Source: Rhodothermales bacterium (GTDB taxonomy: Bacteria; Bacteroidota; Rhodothermia; Rhodothermales; VXPQ01). Taken from it: a DNA stretch of 25,856 nt. Shown piece after piece: positions 5,640 to 25,649 of the stretch. Both the position numbers and the translations under genes were made by a program. Every line of letters starts with the position of its first letter. Within the stretch, counting starts at the first letter, position 1. The notes under the pieces were generated by a model, which was given only the letters and a program-made list of their open reading frames with translations, did not search any database and was not told where the DNA came from. Where the stretch lies: the NCBI GenBank assembly GCA_040904565.1, contig JBBDTI010000023.1, positions 1 to 25,856 of the forward strand, written 5' to 3'.

Positions 5640-6395
5640 ATGATCGTTCGCACGGAGGCCATCGTGCTCAGGAGCATCGACTACGGGGAGACGAGCGAGA
5701 TCGTCACGGTCTTCACGCGGGATATGGGAAAACTCACCGTAATGGCTAAAGGAGCGCGACGGCCCAAGAGCCGCTTCGGCTCCACCCTTCAGCCGATGTC
5801 CTATACGGAGGTCGTGTTCTATTACAAGGAGACGCGAGGCATCCAGACGTTGACCGAGAGCAGCCACGTGCGCGCCTTTCACGGCATCTCGAGAAGTCTG
5901 GAAGGGCTCTCCTACGGACTGCGCATCGTCGAGCTCGTTTATGCGCTCATGCAGGAGGAAGAGCGAAATCCGATCGTGTTCGACCTCGTGCTGGAAATCC
6001 TCGAGGAGCTCAATCGAACGGCGACGCGCCTCGAGAGCCTTTTCCATTTCTTCCAGCTGCGGCTCGCGACCGTGCTCGGCTTCGCGCCGCATATCGAGCG
6101 GGAAGATGTCGAGCGGATTCCGGAGAGCGGAGGCGTCATCGCACTCGAAGATGGATCGATCCTGCCGACTGAGCCGGGGGGCGCCATTACCGTCCGTCGC
6201 GGCTCTCGCAAAGCGCTGCGCGCCTTCGCGATCTTCGCCCGTGCCGACCTGGAAACCGTCATGCGTATGCGCGTCGACAAACGGACGCACATCGAATTGA
6301 GCCGCCTCATCGAGGATTTCATCCGCTACCACGTCGAAGACGCCTACCCGTCCCGATCCGCACGCATCATCGGCCAGATGCTCGACGACACCTGA
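5640..6395 (+). CDS. recO: DNA repair protein RecO
   Basis: 251 aa; MIVRTEAIVLRSIDYGETSEIVTVFTRDMGKLTVMAKGARRPKSRF OB-fold N-terminus; FQLRLATVLGFAP; no Cys4 zinc finger. Confidence 0.93.
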   Translation: MIVRTEAIVLRSIDYGETSEIVTVFTRDMGKLTVMAKGARRPKSRFGSTLQPMSYTEVVFYYKETRGIQTLTESSHVRAFHGISRSLEGLSYGLRIVELVYALMQEEERNPIVFDLVLEILEELNRTATRLESLFHFFQLRLATVLGFAPHIEREDVERIPESGGVIALEDGSILPTEPGGAITVRRGSRKALRAFAIFARADLETVMRMRVDKRTHIELSRLIEDFIRYHVEDAYPSRSARIIGQMLDDT

Positions 6396-17630: not shown

Positions 17631-17993
17631 CGTCATTCCAGGGCGCGGCGCCGGGGCCGGCGTCGGTCGTGCCGCTTCCGAGGCATAACCGGGAGCCATG
17701 TCCACGCGCACGGCCGCTCCGAGGGCATTGCGCGCTCGGAGATAAAAGATACTTGGCCGCCGCGTCAATTGTTCGTGCGCCGGGACGCGCGAATCCGCTC
17801 GAGCACGCCTGCGGCACGCGAGCGTGGTGAAAAAGGTGACAAAACCAGTGAGCGGCCGGAGCGGCCGCGGCACGCACTGCACCGCGCGATGCGTATCTTA
17901 CATGGCGCGCCTATCGCGACGGCGCCATCAACAGGATGTATCAACACCATAACGACGATAGTGTCGTCACCATACCCATTGCTCGCTGCCGCC

Positions 17994-18884
17994 ATGTCCA
18001 CGCGCCTTCCGGCTCTCCTGTCCGTCCTCCTTCTCGCAGGCCTTCTAGCCCAGCTCGCTGCCCCCGACGCCGCGGCGCAGCAGACCATCCCGCTCTGGCC
18101 CGAGGGCGCGCCCGGGGCCGTCGGCAGCGAGGAGGTCGATCGGCCCACGCTCACCATCCATCTGCCCGAAAACGGGAACGGCACGGCGGTGGTCGTCTGC
18201 CCGGGAGGTGGATACCGCAATCTCGCCATGGATCATGAAGGGCGGCAGGTTGCCGAGTGGCTGAACGAGCGGGGCATTGCGGCCTTCGTGCTCAAGTACC
18301 GCCTGGGCCACCGTTATCGCCATCCGGCGCCGCTGTCGGACGTCCGGCGCGCCCTGCGCATGGTCCGGTCCGGTTCCGACACGCTCGGCATCGACCCCGA
18401 GCGTATCGGCGTGTGGGGTTTCTCAGCCGGCGGACACCTCGCCGCTACGGCGTCGACGCAGTATGTACGGGGGGATGCGCAGGCCGAGGGCCCGATCGAT
18501 CGGGTGAGCTCGCGTCCCGACTTCTCCATTCTCGCGTATCCGGTCATTTCGCTGGCCGAATCCTACACGCACCAGGGCTCACGCCAGGCCCTGCTGGGCG
18601 AGGATCCCGATCCGGCCCTCGTCTCGCAGCTCTCCAACGAACGGCACGTCACCTCGTCCACCCCGCCCGCCTTCCTCTTCCACACGGATGAAGACGAAGC
18701 CGTACCGGCCGAAAACAGCGTGGCGTATTACCTCGCGCTGCGCCGGAACGGCGTTCCCGCCGAGCTGCACGTCTACCGCGACGGGCGCCACGGCGTGGGG
18801 CTGGCGCCCGGCGACCCGGTGCTCGGCACGTGGCCCGACCGGCTGGAAGACTGGCTGCGCGCGCAAGGGCTGCTGGGCGGTTAA
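17994..18884 (+). CDS. Secreted alpha/beta hydrolase (carbohydrate esterase-like, BD-FAE type)
   Basis: Likely ATG at 17994 giving signal peptide MSTRLPALLSVLLLAG..AAAQ; PGGGY oxyanion motif, GFSAGG nucleophile elbow, DxxV Asp, HGVG His. Confidence 0.88.
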   Translation: MSTRLPALLSVLLLAGLLAQLAAPDAAAQQTIPLWPEGAPGAVGSEEVDRPTLTIHLPENGNGTAVVVCPGGGYRNLAMDHEGRQVAEWLNERGIAAFVLKYRLGHRYRHPAPLSDVRRALRMVRSGSDTLGIDPERIGVWGFSAGGHLAATASTQYVRGDAQAEGPIDRVSSRPDFSILAYPVISLAESYTHQGSRQALLGEDPDPALVSQLSNERHVTSSTPPAFLFHTDEDEAVPAENSVAYYLALRRNGVPAELHVYRDGRHGVGLAPGDPVLGTWPDRLEDWLRAQGLLGG

Positions 18885-19084
18885 GCCCGCCGGGAAGTTA
18901 TCCGGGTCGGATTGAGGCAGGTTATGCGGGACGGGACCGCGTGTCTAATAGGTAGAGACCGCCTTCATCGGTGAACCGGCCCGCGACGTCGAGCGTATCA
19001 GAAAAACCTGTTATTCCGACGAATGATGACGTCGTACTGCGCCGACGAATCGTGAAAACCGTACGCACATCACCGGAGAACGCG

Positions 19085-19645
19085 ATGGCAGAGCCGCTCA
19101 CCATCCATCGTCTGACGGTCGACGACTACCACGCCATGGCCGAGGCCGGCATCCTGAGCCCGGACTCCCGCGTGGAGTTGATCGACGGACAGATCGTCGA
19201 AAAGATGACCATCGGAGCCCGTCACATGCGCGCCGTGAACACGCTCAACGAGCTGGCCGTCCGACGTGCCGGGGACGTGGTGGAAGTCAGCATTCAGAAT
19301 CCCGTTCGGTTGAGCCGGTATTCGGAACCCGAGCCCGACGTCGCCCTGCTCAAGCGGTCTCGCGATCCGGCGGAGATCCCGCGTGCGGCGGACGTGCTCC
19401 TGCTGGTCGAGGTGGCCGACGCGACGCTCCGCGTCGACCGGTCCGTCAAGCTCCCGCTTTACGCGGAGGCCCGTATCCCGGAGGTGTGGATCGTCAACCT
19501 GCCCGAGAGCCGGGTCGAATGCTACCGCGACCCCTCGGCCTCAGGCTACGAGACGGCGTTCGACGTCGGGGCGGATGGGCAGCTGGAAGCCCATCTCGTG
19601 CCGGAGATGGGGGCGATCTCCGCCGCCTCGGTGCTCGGCGCGTGA
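19085..19645 (+). CDS. Uma2-family (DUF820) PD-(D/E)xK endonuclease-like protein
   Basis: Likely ATG at 19085 with GGAG SD; LTVDDYHAM, RVELIDG, EPEPDV, LLVEVAD, KLPLYA..IPEVWIVN. Confidence 0.9.
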   Translation: MAEPLTIHRLTVDDYHAMAEAGILSPDSRVELIDGQIVEKMTIGARHMRAVNTLNELAVRRAGDVVEVSIQNPVRLSRYSEPEPDVALLKRSRDPAEIPRAADVLLLVEVADATLRVDRSVKLPLYAEARIPEVWIVNLPESRVECYRDPSASGYETAFDVGADGQLEAHLVPEMGAISAASVLGA

Positions 19646-19747: not shown

Positions 19748-20095
19748 ATGAAAATCGGCCGTAAGATATTGAGCCATCTCGCGATGGCTCCCGTGTGCGT
19801 TGTGCTCGTTCTCCTGACGTACACGCTGAACCTGCTCTCTTCGGCGAGTGACCTGCAGGCGCAAGAGTATGGGCAAACCTGCACGGAGTGCTTGGCTGGA
19901 GTGGGCGTGTCATTCGCACCGGCCGCGCCATCCGGCCGCTCTTTCAGGTACGGGGCGCCTCTAGAGCATCATAGCGCCGTTCGGCGGCTCGGGAAATTCA
20001 GAATGAATTTCGATTGGATGAGGAGCGTACGAGGCCGCGTCAACCATCTGCCGAGTACCGAACGGCGGATCGGTCTCCCCTGGATCCGGCCGTGA
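19748..20095 (+). pseudogene. Possible truncated secreted-protein gene or spurious ORF
   Basis: Signal-peptide-like N-terminus ending LQA-Q, then CTEC; the remainder looks like translated non-coding DNA. Confidence 0.3.
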
Positions 20096-20277
20096 AGGAG
20101 CGGAGAGACATGTCGAGCAGCGATACGCCCGCGATGTGAAAACCAGTTCGGAGGACATCAGGCGCTGCATGGCAGCAGCCGTCGAATGCCCCCGAATGAG
20201 CGCCCGTGGTCGGCCATCCCGCGAAATGAGCGCCCGGAACCACCCCTTCCGGCGCATCGTTTGAGGCCGCCACGACC

Positions 20278-20350
20278 GGGGCTATAGCTCAGTTGGTAGA
20301 GCGCTGCAATCGCACTGCAGAGGTCAGGAGTTCGAATCTCCTTAGCTCCA
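20278..20350 (+). tRNA. tRNA-Ala(CGC)
   Basis: 73 nt; acceptor GGGGCTA/TAGCTCC with G3:U70; D-arm GCTC/GAGC; anticodon stem CTGCA/TGCAG with loop ATCGCAC; T-arm AGGAG-TTCGAAT-CTCCT; discriminator A; CCA not encoded. Confidence 0.97.
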
Positions 20351-20358
20351 CATGGAAA

Positions 20359-20373
20359 TCCTTAGGTCCACAT
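20359..20373 (+). repeat. Short extra copy of the tRNA 3' end
   Basis: TCCTTAGGTCCACAT vs TCCTTAGCTCCACAT at 20339-20353 (14/15 identical). Confidence 0.8.
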
Positions 20374-20375
20374 TG

Positions 20376-20423
20376 AAAAGCGGCCCAGATGACGAGTCAA
20401 CACCGAATCTGGGCCGCTTTTTT
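20376..20423 (+). terminator. Intrinsic terminator after tRNA-Ala
   Basis: AAAAGCGGCCCAGAT-N16-ATCTGGGCCGCTTTT followed by TT. Confidence 0.88.
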
Positions 20424-20598
20424 ATTGTCGCCCGTCCTCGGGAACGTAACATCTACACGCGTTTCAACGGGGCCACCGCGACGTATCGTCCTTCTCACAC
20501 TGCCGAGGATGGAGTAAACCTTCGAAGGGTCGCGGAGCGATGATCCGGCACCCGCAGATCCGTGCAGGGGGCTCCGACCATTCAAAGATGCTGTGTAC

Positions 20599-20662
20599 AG
20601 ATAGGACAGTGGCTAGATAGGATGGTGGCTAGATAGGATGGTGGCTAAATAGAATGGCTGGG
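20599..20662. repeat. 16-bp tandem repeat (3 good copies + 1 degenerate)
   Basis: AGATAGGACAGTGGCT / AGATAGGATGGTGGCT / AGATAGGATGGTGGCT / AAATAGAATGGCTGGG. Confidence 0.9.
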
Positions 20663-20663
20663 C

Positions 20664-21380
20664 GTGGATAGAGGTCTCGCATTCGATATCGGGTACCGCG
20701 ATGTCCGTCGGCTGATAGCCATGTTGATCGGAGTTGAGATACTGTTTCTAGCTATCTTTCTCCTTATGCATGTCATCTTCCCTGAGGTGGAATGGGGGGC
20801 ACTGTCACGGCTCTTCGATTTTGATCACGAAATGTCGATTCCGACGTGGTTCTCTTCCACTCAGCTCTTCGCAGCCGGCGCGGTACTCTATGCCGTATCA
20901 CGCTCGAGTGAGAAGCACAAGTGGTTTCTCCGACTGGGGGCGTTGGTATTGGTCTTCGCTTCGGTGGACGAAGGCGCGGCGATACATGAGTCAATTTCAT
21001 CGCGCGTCAGAAACGCCGAGAGCGGAATCTCGCAGTCACTAATGATCAACGATCACGGTGCGTGGATCGTGCCGTATGCTATCGCAGGAGTAACTCTGCT
21101 CGTAATATGCGCCAGGCCGGCTCTCGATATTTTGCGTAATCACCGCAGACCGTCGTTGTTCGTAATTGGCGGAATGTCTGTCTTTGTCCTGGGAGCCGTC
21201 GGTCTGGAAATATCTAGTTATTTGTTTCTCCGCGAAGGCGCGACGCTGGCCTACTTACTAGAGGTCGCCGCCGAAGAATTTTTCGAGATGGTCGGCGTCA
21301 CCATTGTCCTCTTGGGAATCGTTCGCTACGGAGTCGAGGTGCGCGGACACACGCAGGTAGGACGGGGCAAGAAGGCCTGA
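20664..21380 (+). CDS. Polytopic (about 6 TM) membrane protein of unknown function, island cargo
   Basis: 238 aa; six hydrophobic segments; motifs DHEMSIPTWFSS, SVDEGAAIHE, EEFFEMVG; more A/T-ending codons than the flanking genes; start codon uncertain. Confidence 0.85.
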   Translation: MDRGLAFDIGYRDVRRLIAMLIGVEILFLAIFLLMHVIFPEVEWGALSRLFDFDHEMSIPTWFSSTQLFAAGAVLYAVSRSSEKHKWFLRLGALVLVFASVDEGAAIHESISSRVRNAESGISQSLMINDHGAWIVPYAIAGVTLLVICARPALDILRNHRRPSLFVIGGMSVFVLGAVGLEISSYLFLREGATLAYLLEVAAEEFFEMVGVTIVLLGIVRYGVEVRGHTQVGRGKKA

Positions 21381-21396
21381 AAAGACGTCCCCTAGT

Positions 21397-21443
21397 CAAT
21401 CGCACTGCAGAGGTCAGGAGTTCGAATCTCATTAGGTCCACAT
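21397..21443 (+). repeat. tRNA-Ala 3'-half fragment (attR-like)
   Basis: CAATCGCACTGCAGAGGTCAGGAGTTCGAATCTCATTAGGTCCACAT; begins at the anticodon loop and has no 5' half. Confidence 0.93.
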
Positions 21444-21449
21444 TTGTAG

Positions 21450-21486
21450 AAAGGCCCGTTTTACGCAAGTAGAGCGGGCTTTTTTT
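21450..21486 (+). terminator. Intrinsic terminator with GCAA tetraloop after the tRNA fragment
   Basis: AAAGGCCCGTTTTAC-GCAA-GTAGAGCGGGCTTTT followed by TTT; stem includes G-U pairs. Confidence 0.88.
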
Positions 21487-21611
21487 GTCCGCAACAGCGA
21501 GATCCTCAGTGCTTCTGATCTCATCGATGTTGGCGCTCCATTCAACGGTCGTTCTCATGCACGGATCGCATCTTCTATAGCGCCACGTCACGCAAAAACA
21601 GTATGGTACTG

Positions 21612-21831
21612 ATGAGAACCCCACCGATTGTCCTGCTACTGTTCTTCACGGGGTGCAAGCAACCTACTTGGTGTAGAGAACACGCCCCCCGACCCCTTCC
21701 AGCTAAGCCGCTGGCAGTTGGTAGCCGTCGATAAACTAACCCTGATCTTCACTACACCGACGCGATCAATGAAACCAAATGTCGAAACCATCTGCGAGGA
21801 GCTTCACTACCAAGCAATGCGCGCACGATGA
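21612..21831 (+). pseudogene. Probable frameshifted, truncated relic of a META-lipoprotein paralogue
   Basis: ATG 21612 gives MRTPPIVLLLFFTGC (lipobox); the +1 frame continues SNLLGVENTPPDPFQLSRWQLVAVD, resembling CGLLGDKGAPAPEPSSYLEGTEWRLAS of the next gene. The unshifted frame stops at 21734. Confidence 0.55.
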
Positions 21832-22271
21832 CCTGTCGTTTACTATTCGCATCAGCCCTCCTTACGATCACCGGTTGCGGTCTCCTCGGCGACAAGGGCG
21901 CGCCCGCACCGGAGCCCTCCTCGTATCTGGAAGGCACCGAATGGCGCCTGGCATCGACGGAGGGCGTGGGCGCGCCGCCGCCAACAGAAGCACGCTACGC
22001 GATTCATTTTATAGAGGCAGGCGCAGTGGCAGCGGGGCGTATTCAATGCAATGGATGGGGAGGCTCCTACAGCGAGTATGTCGGCGGCCGCATCTCCATA
22101 GACGTGCAAGCAATCGAGCTCGCCGGATGCCCCAATCCTGCCCCGTTTGATGACGAGTATCCGGATATACTCGAGGCCGCACAGCACTACGAACTCGAGG
22201 ACTCTACGCTCGTGCTACACACCGATGCCGAGCGGGGTCAGGTGCTTCATTTCGTACGTATCCGCCCCTAA
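21828..22271 (+). CDS. META-domain (HslJ-like) lipoprotein
   Basis: 147 aa; lipobox ITGC; LEGTEWRL, GRIQCNGWGGSY, LAGC, YELEDSTLVL. Confidence 0.85.
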   Translation: MTCRLLFASALLTITGCGLLGDKGAPAPEPSSYLEGTEWRLASTEGVGAPPPTEARYAIHFIEAGAVAAGRIQCNGWGGSYSEYVGGRISIDVQAIELAGCPNPAPFDDEYPDILEAAQHYELEDSTLVLHTDAERGQVLHFVRIRP

Positions 22272-22379
22272 GAGCTGCGCGTGTCGAGGCCATCAACGCC
22301 CGCACGGTAATTCCCTCCGAAACAAACATCCTCCATACCTTATTCTCTGGTCGCAGCTCTTACAACTGCTTCCAACGCT

Positions 22380-25649
<3,270 letters not shown>

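Follow-up and report, generated by a model that had tools for sequence, protein, structure and literature searches.

Cis-mobilizable elements (CIMEs), and the tandem accretion of remnants of ICEs (integrative and conjugative elements) and of IMEs (integrative and mobilizable elements), were reportedly first described for ICESt1-related elements of Streptococcus thermophilus. In the cited portion of PMC5704250, CIMEs are remnants that keep their attachment (att) sites and have lost their integration genes, tandem arrays with newer elements are common, and such arrays arise as a new element integrates into the att site of a decayed one. Partial tRNA genes left by integrative elements are pervasive in bacteria and archaea, and their annotation as attR has been proposed (PMC9897764, in the portion cited). 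Here we describe a locus of this kind in a Rhodothermales bacterium. The stretch analyzed (the window) comprises bases 1-25,856 of the 47,995-base contig C23 (JBBDTI010000023.1), part of a 95-contig metagenome assembly of 4.0 Mb that is 94.9% complete, and our subject is its tRNA-Ala(CGC) gene, which is followed by copies of its own 3' part. With a probability that we put at roughly 70%, site-specific integration into the 3' part of this gene occurred repeatedly and left the locus as a series of island remnants in tandem, decayed and without integrases. It is a familiar kind of genomic scar, already described, in a new lineage, and not a new gene-capture system.

The 3' part of the gene recurs downstream as the copies M1, M2, and M3 (Table 1). 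A repeat finder reports a 47-nt direct repeat (20307-20353 and 21397-21443; 96% identical, spacing 1,090 nt) and a 16-nt family (20339-20354, 20359-20374, and 21429-21444), and M1 begins 8 nt after the tRNA gene. An earlier note on this DNA had stated that the tRNA 3' end occurs three times and that both extra copies share TTAGGTCCACATT, which the repeat finder and shuffled sequences confirm: TTAGGTCCACATT is exact at 20362-20374 and 21432-21444, the tRNA end is the same with two mismatches, and three matches were observed against 0.12 expected, with three or more in none of 100 shuffles. The first 34 nt of M2 match the tRNA gene exactly, and both of its mismatches fall in the acceptor/T-stem part. 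M2 and M3 both start at CAATCGCA in the anticodon loop, at the same base, and the sequence to their left is unrelated. The tRNA gene and M3 have CCACATGGA in common; M1 and M2 instead share TTAGGTCCACATT, whose G is unable to pair with G4 of the own tRNA. A pattern search allowing three mismatches found no copies of the core beyond the three long ones in the 4.0-Mb assembly. Because M3 lies 8 kb beyond the end of the window, the locus is an array of at least three segments and not one cassette. The single cassette of the earlier note was thus partly an effect of where the window ends, and the search for other copies of the 47-mer that it proposed turned up M3 alone, with none on other contigs. 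The gene is the only tRNA-Ala(CGC) in the assembly; a second ARAGORN "Ala cgc" call of 90 nt (C92:33667-33756) folds poorly, lies inside an open reading frame (ORF), and is very likely a false positive.

Table 1. Features of the tRNA-Ala(CGC) locus; positions are those of the window unless C23 is given
Feature	Position	Strand	Remarks
META-domain protein and 1,089-aa PD40 propeller/amidohydrolase	21828-25649	+	start of M2-M3 segment; Pfam
tRNA-Ala(CGC) gene, intact	20278-20351	+	ARAGORN; sole tRNA in window
att core	20307-20356	+	anticodon loop to 4-5 nt past tRNA 3' end; block recurring downstream
M1, 16-nt remnant of tRNA 3' end	20359-20374	+	14/16 identical to tRNA end; G at tRNA position 69
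Terminator 1	20376-20427	+	15-bp perfect stem and T-run (inverted repeat)
Three tandem 16-nt repeats AGATAGGAYRGTGGCT and degenerate fourth	20599-20646	+	in 236-nt noncoding stretch 5' of P0001
P0001, 238-aa helical membrane protein	20664-21380	+	unnamed conserved family
M2, 47-nt copy of tRNA 3' part	21397-21443 (block to 21444)	+	45/47 identical; starts at anticodon loop
Terminator 2	21448-21486	+	A-tract, GC stem, T-run
Low-GC stretch (GC 0.51-0.58)	21487-21827		no supported gene; ORFs without Pfam or PHROG match
M3, 50-nt copy	C23:33922-33971		49/50 identical to 20307-20356; 8 kb past window end

In the mechanism that we propose, a tyrosine integrase would cross over in the anticodon loop and so duplicate everything between the loop and a point a few bases beyond the tRNA end. 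With the incoming element would come a new tRNA 3' end and, as in the sole intact example seen (the relative G184), a terminator right behind it, and the displaced copy would remain at the far end of the element. Repeated events would stack segments, and all recombinase genes would since have been lost, presumably by deletion. What remains would then read, in order, as the tRNA gene, M1 with its terminator, a 1.0-kb remnant carrying P0001, M2 with its terminator, a 12.5-kb four-gene segment, M3, and low-GC accessory genes (PIN/DUF433 and Fic). The module of tRNA end plus terminator would not be a site dedicated to capture; it would arise as a by-product when elements restore the tRNA gene and terminate its transcript.

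An intact counterpart was found in a relative. We scanned 285 genomes of the order with the last 33 nt of the tRNA, and three further genomes (G184, G041, and G264) had two copies on one contig and strand. In G184, a perfect 49-nt repeat (6075-6123 and 15922-15970 of L142, which is G184:C1:953000-972999) bounds a 9.85-kb island at tRNA-Ala(CGC) with genes for a tyrosine integrase (PF00589, E 2.2e-17) and AAA_25 proteins. This repeat aligns with the copies at our locus from the CAATCGCA position and is one base longer on the 5' side. The integrase gene ends 137 nt before the distal copy, and a terminator-like hairpin forms the tRNA-proximal flank of the island. Beyond the island, at a distance of 3.4 kb, stands an older, degenerate third copy (73% identical), and no integrase family was found among the ORFs scanned between the two distal copies. 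The element looks intact, and G184 has fresh and decayed stages side by side. By the terms of the earlier note, a larger island with an integrase in relatives would count against its cassette, and the G184 island is such a result. A 20-nt motif, AGTACGGCACATGTACGGCA, is repeated near both ends of the island and may represent arm-type sites.

Integrases are associated with the same tRNA in other genomes too. In G005, a member of the same family, the C-terminal part of an integrase (139 aa; PF00589 E 5e-5, which is under the curated cut-off) is encoded ~550 nt downstream of this tRNA. Four IMG/VR contigs contain a 26-nt copy of this tRNA 3' end without the tRNA gene, and a tyrosine integrase adjoins the copy in both of the two contigs that were annotated. 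On the strength of the G184 island and these viral contigs, this tRNA end is proven to be a target of integrases of at least two kinds.

The region downstream of the tRNA gene also varies among relatives. Aconitase adjoins tRNA-Ala(CGC) in six of eight relative loci (~245-290 nt apart in the two measured). On the other side, the four loci annotated downstream of the tRNA, from four genera, differ throughout in gene content; G006, for example, has a HicB-like gene there. No orthologs of eight of our downstream genes were found in the eight relative loci, the lone match being a 29%-identical sensor-kinase relative in L058, and cassette-like DNA was absent from 40 relatives. Synteny of 20001-47995 with the eight loci was likewise not found, a result that does not by itself decide the ancestral flank. 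Extra tRNA 3' copies were seen in none of 20 relative loci within ~5 kb, and in none of five whole genomes of genus g8, which differ from six congeners in the flank downstream of the tRNA. Four metagenome-assembled contigs of relatives (G002:C157, G003:C489, G028:C217, and G029:C361) end inside this tRNA or at most ~150 nt after it, which would fit a repeat or strain variation just downstream of the tRNA.

Searches for a recombinase at our locus returned nothing. The genome has nine matches to PF00589, none of them on the 48-kb contig C23, and no recombinase or transposase family appears among the 38 C23 ORFs scanned against Pfam. When the G184 integrase, the G005 fragment, and the nine integrases of this genome served as tblastn queries, nothing matched in 20352-21444 even at E values up to 5; the best integrase match on C23 (E 0.043) lies outside this interval. 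The earlier note's remark that the window holds no recombinase therefore extends to the whole contig. Measured against an intact tRNA-targeting element, the locus has the direct repeat at the far end (45/47 and 49/50) and no integrase of its own.

The cargo of the first segment is foreign in character. The stretch 20300-21800 has a guanine-plus-cytosine (GC) content of 0.51-0.56, its flanks have 0.60-0.71, and the cargo region itself has 0.52-0.55. P0001, the sole supported gene between the tRNA and M2, is genuine. In a large collection of proteins, 35 others are related to it, none of them named or with a Pfam domain; the best match is 62% identical, the closest homologues (55-62% identity) lie on short contigs, and family members measure ~235 aa. 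An alignment of 28 members shows ten invariant residues (W62, D102, E103, H108, E109, W134, E182, E204, E205, and E208). No Pfam family matched P0001, the PHROGs gave one weak match only (E 0.031), and the Atlas search returned hypothetical clusters only. The AlphaFold model is a confident, all-helical membrane protein (predicted local distance difference test score [pLDDT] 89.7), and a Foldseek search of it against the PDB found nothing significant (best E 0.27, template modeling [TM] score 0.33). The gene is horizontally acquired, because none of 18 same-family genomes has a match, elsewhere in the order matches occur in 46 of 284 genomes and do not exceed 42% identity, and homologues are scattered patchily across unrelated phyla in public genome loci. 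The earlier note's description of one foreign-looking gene between the copies thus holds in both its low GC content and its absence from the 18 family genomes. The P0001 family, in which Asp, Glu, and His residues are invariant and for which the solved structures include no relative, may be worth separate attention. The AGATAGGAYRGTGGCT repeats end 18 nt before the start of P0001 and may serve as operators or as iteron-like sites.

We also examined 17 loci of P0001 homologues in public genomes, found with an alignment of the 11 closest sequences. In three of these unrelated loci (L040, L047, and L053), a tRNA gene (Met, Pro, or two Ser) lies within ~700 nt of the homologue, a proportion that we take to be above what tRNA density would predict, on a rough and uncomputed estimate. 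The idea that P0001 homologues are generally flanked by tRNA-derived repeats was rejected: none were present in the four of the 17 loci that bear a tRNA, where the only tRNA-derived family is the pair of adjacent tRNA-Ser genes of L053.

Taken together, the common anticodon-loop boundary, the G184 counterpart, the G005 fragment, the variable downstream region, and the foreign cargo lead us to favor serial, integrase-mediated insertion as the probable origin of the copies. The imperfection of the copies (45/47, 49/50, and 14/16), compared with the 49/49 of G184, fits old events. As in the attR-type tRNA fragments of PMC9897764 (in the portion cited), a partial 3' copy stands downstream of an intact tRNA gene with foreign DNA between them; unlike those, the enclosed segments here lack an integrase, one of them is 1.0 kb long with a single gene, and at least three copies stand in series. 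The likeness to CIMEs is also close, since the att sites are kept (34 exact bases between the tRNA gene and M2, 45/47 overall) and the integration and transfer genes are gone, leaving one membrane-protein gene and no integrase remnant. Here, however, no related intact element exists in the genome, the att copies are imperfect, and the lineage is unrelated to streptococci. As to descent from an ICE or IME, the G184 island has the same core boundary, but nothing beyond the core is common to both. The tandem islands at ssrA (the transfer-messenger RNA gene) of Dehalococcoides are similar in being site-specific islands at a small stable RNA gene, and differ in the target gene (PMC3146451, in the portion cited).

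The significance of these observations is mainly a point of annotation: the partial tRNA copies are best labeled as att remnants, and the stretch from the tRNA gene to at least contig position 33971 is to be treated as a variable accreted region and not as core genome. Also, G184 (fresh) and our locus (decayed) share the same anticodon-loop core and make a clean pair for the study of array aging.

Both M1 and M2 have a strong intrinsic terminator behind them, as the earlier note had proposed. The fold of 20372-20432 has a free energy of -29.6 kcal/mol (z -6.0) and that of 21442-21492 one of -24.0 kcal/mol (z -5.8), each with a T-run behind it and each more stable than all of 200 shuffles. Folding analysis showed no terminator behind M3. 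A simple terminator scan with a loop limit of 3-8 nt missed both hairpins and gave four sites, all elsewhere, against 2.0 expected. The "similar design" attributed to the two terminators is borne out for the design and not for the sequence, which is unrelated: their local alignment score of 17 reflects the T-run only. In G002 and in G129, the latter from a different family, the terminator that comes right after the intact tRNA-Ala(CGC) is a homologue of terminator 1. The local alignment scores of terminator 1 are 43 with G002 and 41 with G129, against a null maximum of 21-23 (0 of 500 shuffles for G002), and blastn aligns it to the relatives' terminators over 55 nt (76%) and over 42 nt (79%). 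Scores for terminator 2 fall within the null range against terminator 1 and against every relative's flank compared.

Several observations weigh against the reading of the locus as a serially built array of decayed islands. Terminator 1, 20 nt after the tRNA gene, looks like the native flank, to judge by its similarity to the relatives' terminators, and under simple accretion at the tRNA one would expect that flank at the other end of the array. The tRNA end and M1 need no integrase if taken as a tandem duplication of 20 nt, two 20-mers with two differing positions. The P0001 stop codon lies 16 nt before M2 and that of the DUF5916 gene 70 nt before M3, leaving no room for an integrase placed as in G184; had an integrase stood at a G184-like end, two deletions ending almost exactly at the core would be required. 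The 12.5-kb segment between M2 and M3 is genome-like in GC content (0.60-0.68) and not clearly foreign, and its PD40/amidohydrolase has 76-80% identity with genes of two family relatives, where aconitase has 83-84%. With the islands of G184, G041, G264, and G005, our locus shares the core only, and no other similarity was found. Finally, our genome is the only representative of its genus, the comparisons cover other genera, and no empty or alternative state of the site is visible. Nor does the variant end of M1 and M2 fit such an array easily. One way to reconcile these points would be the transfer of a pre-assembled composite from a related donor.

An alternative that we consider unlikely is that the 1,090-bp segment is a live, integrase-less mini-element, similar to a CIME or an integron cassette, which an integrase specific for tRNA-Ala(CGC) excises and integrates in trans, the tRNA serving as a capture platform. 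The tRNA gene and M2 do keep their exact bases over the anticodon-loop crossover region, P0001 stands very close to the core, P0001-family genes lie near tRNA genes in the three unrelated loci given above, and, for streptococci, the mobilization of such remnants in cis through accretion with an ICE has been documented (PMC5704250, in the portion cited). Two other short, integrase-free intervals are also known in the order. In G041 (L141 6181-8360), a tRNA-Ala(GGC) gene is followed 2,020 nt downstream by a degenerate copy of the whole tRNA, with a 6-nt D-loop deletion and a homologous terminator, and the interval contains one ATPase_2/DUF234 gene. In G264, a 54-nt copy lies 2,088 nt away, at a contig end. 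Against this, no cognate integrase is present: none of the nine PF00589 matches is on C23, and the closest own relative of the G184 integrase is 32% identical and adjoins a tRNA-Thr copy. Copies of the core are found nowhere else in the assembly, M2 has its two mismatches and M3 has one beside the crossover region, the whole-tRNA copy and terminator of G041 are a different structure, and the four P0001-homologue loci with a tRNA gene show no tRNA-derived repeats. In the contigs of four runs from one study, where rare forms would be invisible, the segment and its flanks also have equal depth, and no deletion joint is seen.

Integrons are recognized by intI, attI, and attC cassettes. Our locus resembles them in having short, promoter-poor gene units between repeated, recombination-site-like sequences at one chromosomal spot. 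In contrast to integrons, it has no intI on the 48-kb contig, its boundaries are direct copies of the tRNA 3' end and not the imperfect inverted repeats of attC, and its hairpins are terminators with T-runs. The integron-like reading fails on intI and attC-type sites, neither of which was seen, and the four runs of one study show a single state. Of the two interpretations in the earlier note, the heavily eroded island is supported by the att-like boundary, G184, and G005, and the integron-like cassette moved in trans is not supported, given the lack of an integrase or attP partner, the equal depth, and the absence of a joint or attC. A wider form of the idea, which we also find improbable, is that tRNA-Ala(CGC) is an accretion platform in this order, at which tiny units (tRNA 3' half, terminator, and one gene) are mobilized by the next tRNA-Ala-specific integrase, so that our 1,090-bp unit and those of G041 and G264 would be one phenomenon. 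If a small unit of this kind were mobilizable in trans, the CIME concept would extend to single-gene units in an uncultured lineage.

It is also doubtful that the copies arose without an integrase, M1 as a 20-nt slippage duplication and M2 and M3 as what is left of foreign tRNA-Ala loci (tRNA 3' half, terminator, and adjacent genes) brought in by homologous or homology-facilitated illegitimate recombination with related bacteria. The two 20-mers noted above suit such an origin, as do the terminator 1 type native to this tRNA in two families and the host-like GC content of the 12.5-kb segment with its one gene 76-80% identical to family relatives. The M1/M2 end TTAGGTCCACA is, moreover, the normal 3' end of GGGCCTA-type tRNA-Ala genes elsewhere. 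We looked for a donor element of this variant end and found none: 17 of 18 metagenome matches to TTAGGTCCACA are whole tRNA-Ala genes beginning GGGCCTA, and the remaining one (L069) lies ~180 nt after a tRNA-Ala(TGC) gene. Yet none of the 18 has an anticodon arm of our type, and the arm of M2 is of the own type and not that of GGGCCTA tRNAs. Two independent copies start at the identical anticodon-loop base, where the G184 repeat also aligns, and random breakpoints would not coincide in this way. Homologous exchange, furthermore, replaces sequence and does not duplicate it.

The assembly itself is supported by public sequencing runs. Seven runs contain part of the stretch; X1-X4, from one study, were compared as contigs, and X5-X7 hold 5-7% of the sampled words. 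Contigs of X1 cover 19800-20327, 20327-20638, 20618-21426, and 21401-22000 with zero differences, at depths of 47.1, 43.3, 46.7, and 43.3. Those of X2 cover 19800-20327, 20327-20738, and 20808-21426 (depths 12, 11.2, and 11.1), the last two bridged by 20709-20837 (depth 9.8). The X2 contig further downstream starts at 21508 (depth 9.1); the bin 21428-21501 has zero depth, and the junction of M2 and terminator 2 is uncovered in that run. The right flank of M3 is a loose end in all four runs, and the left flank appears in X1 only, among the matches listed. Cassette depth equals flank depth in the contigs of the four runs, and only one state was seen; no empty-site joint or circle occurs in the contigs of X1-X4, which drop rare forms. 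A mis-joining of contigs at the repeated tRNA sequence of a metagenome bin is thus extremely improbable: it would suit the 95-contig assembly, the breaking of k-mer contigs inside the repeats in four of four runs, and the relatives' contigs that end at or just after this tRNA, but X1 contigs span tRNA-M1, gene-M2, and M2-downstream without differences at depths of 43-47 against 47 upstream, X2 agrees for the first two spans, the M3 flanks appear as loose ends, and repeats of 34-50 nt are shorter than ordinary reads and easily spanned.

Beyond terminator 2, the low-GC stretch is possibly the leftover interior of the next element. The four-gene M2-M3 segment extends over 12.5 kb to C23:33921, where M3 closes it, and past the window it encodes a hybrid sensor kinase of 1,533 aa that includes an AraC domain, together with the 1,001-aa DUF5916 protein. 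The orthologues of its PD40/amidohydrolase in G004 and G001 sit in unrelated contexts. To the right of M3 are a PIN_10/DUF433 pair, a Fic protein, and an Uma2 nuclease, with a GC content of 0.52-0.57 over the first 1.6 kb. On the upstream side of the tRNA, genes for an alpha/beta hydrolase and an Uma2-family nuclease (17769-19645) separate it from aconitase and constitute a second insertion. Uma2 genes recur at C23:36895-37398 and, in tandem, on the G003 contig that ends in the same tRNA.

In line with insertion by integrases, four other tRNA genes of this genome also have extra, exact 24-nt copies of their 3' ends elsewhere: Met (contigs C1/C14), Asn (C3/C72), Thr (C35/C20), and Leu (C50/C80). 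Two tRNA-Met copies lie 24 kb apart on C14, and a tyrosine integrase of 412 aa is encoded 0.8 kb away from the tRNA-Thr copy at C20:43612.

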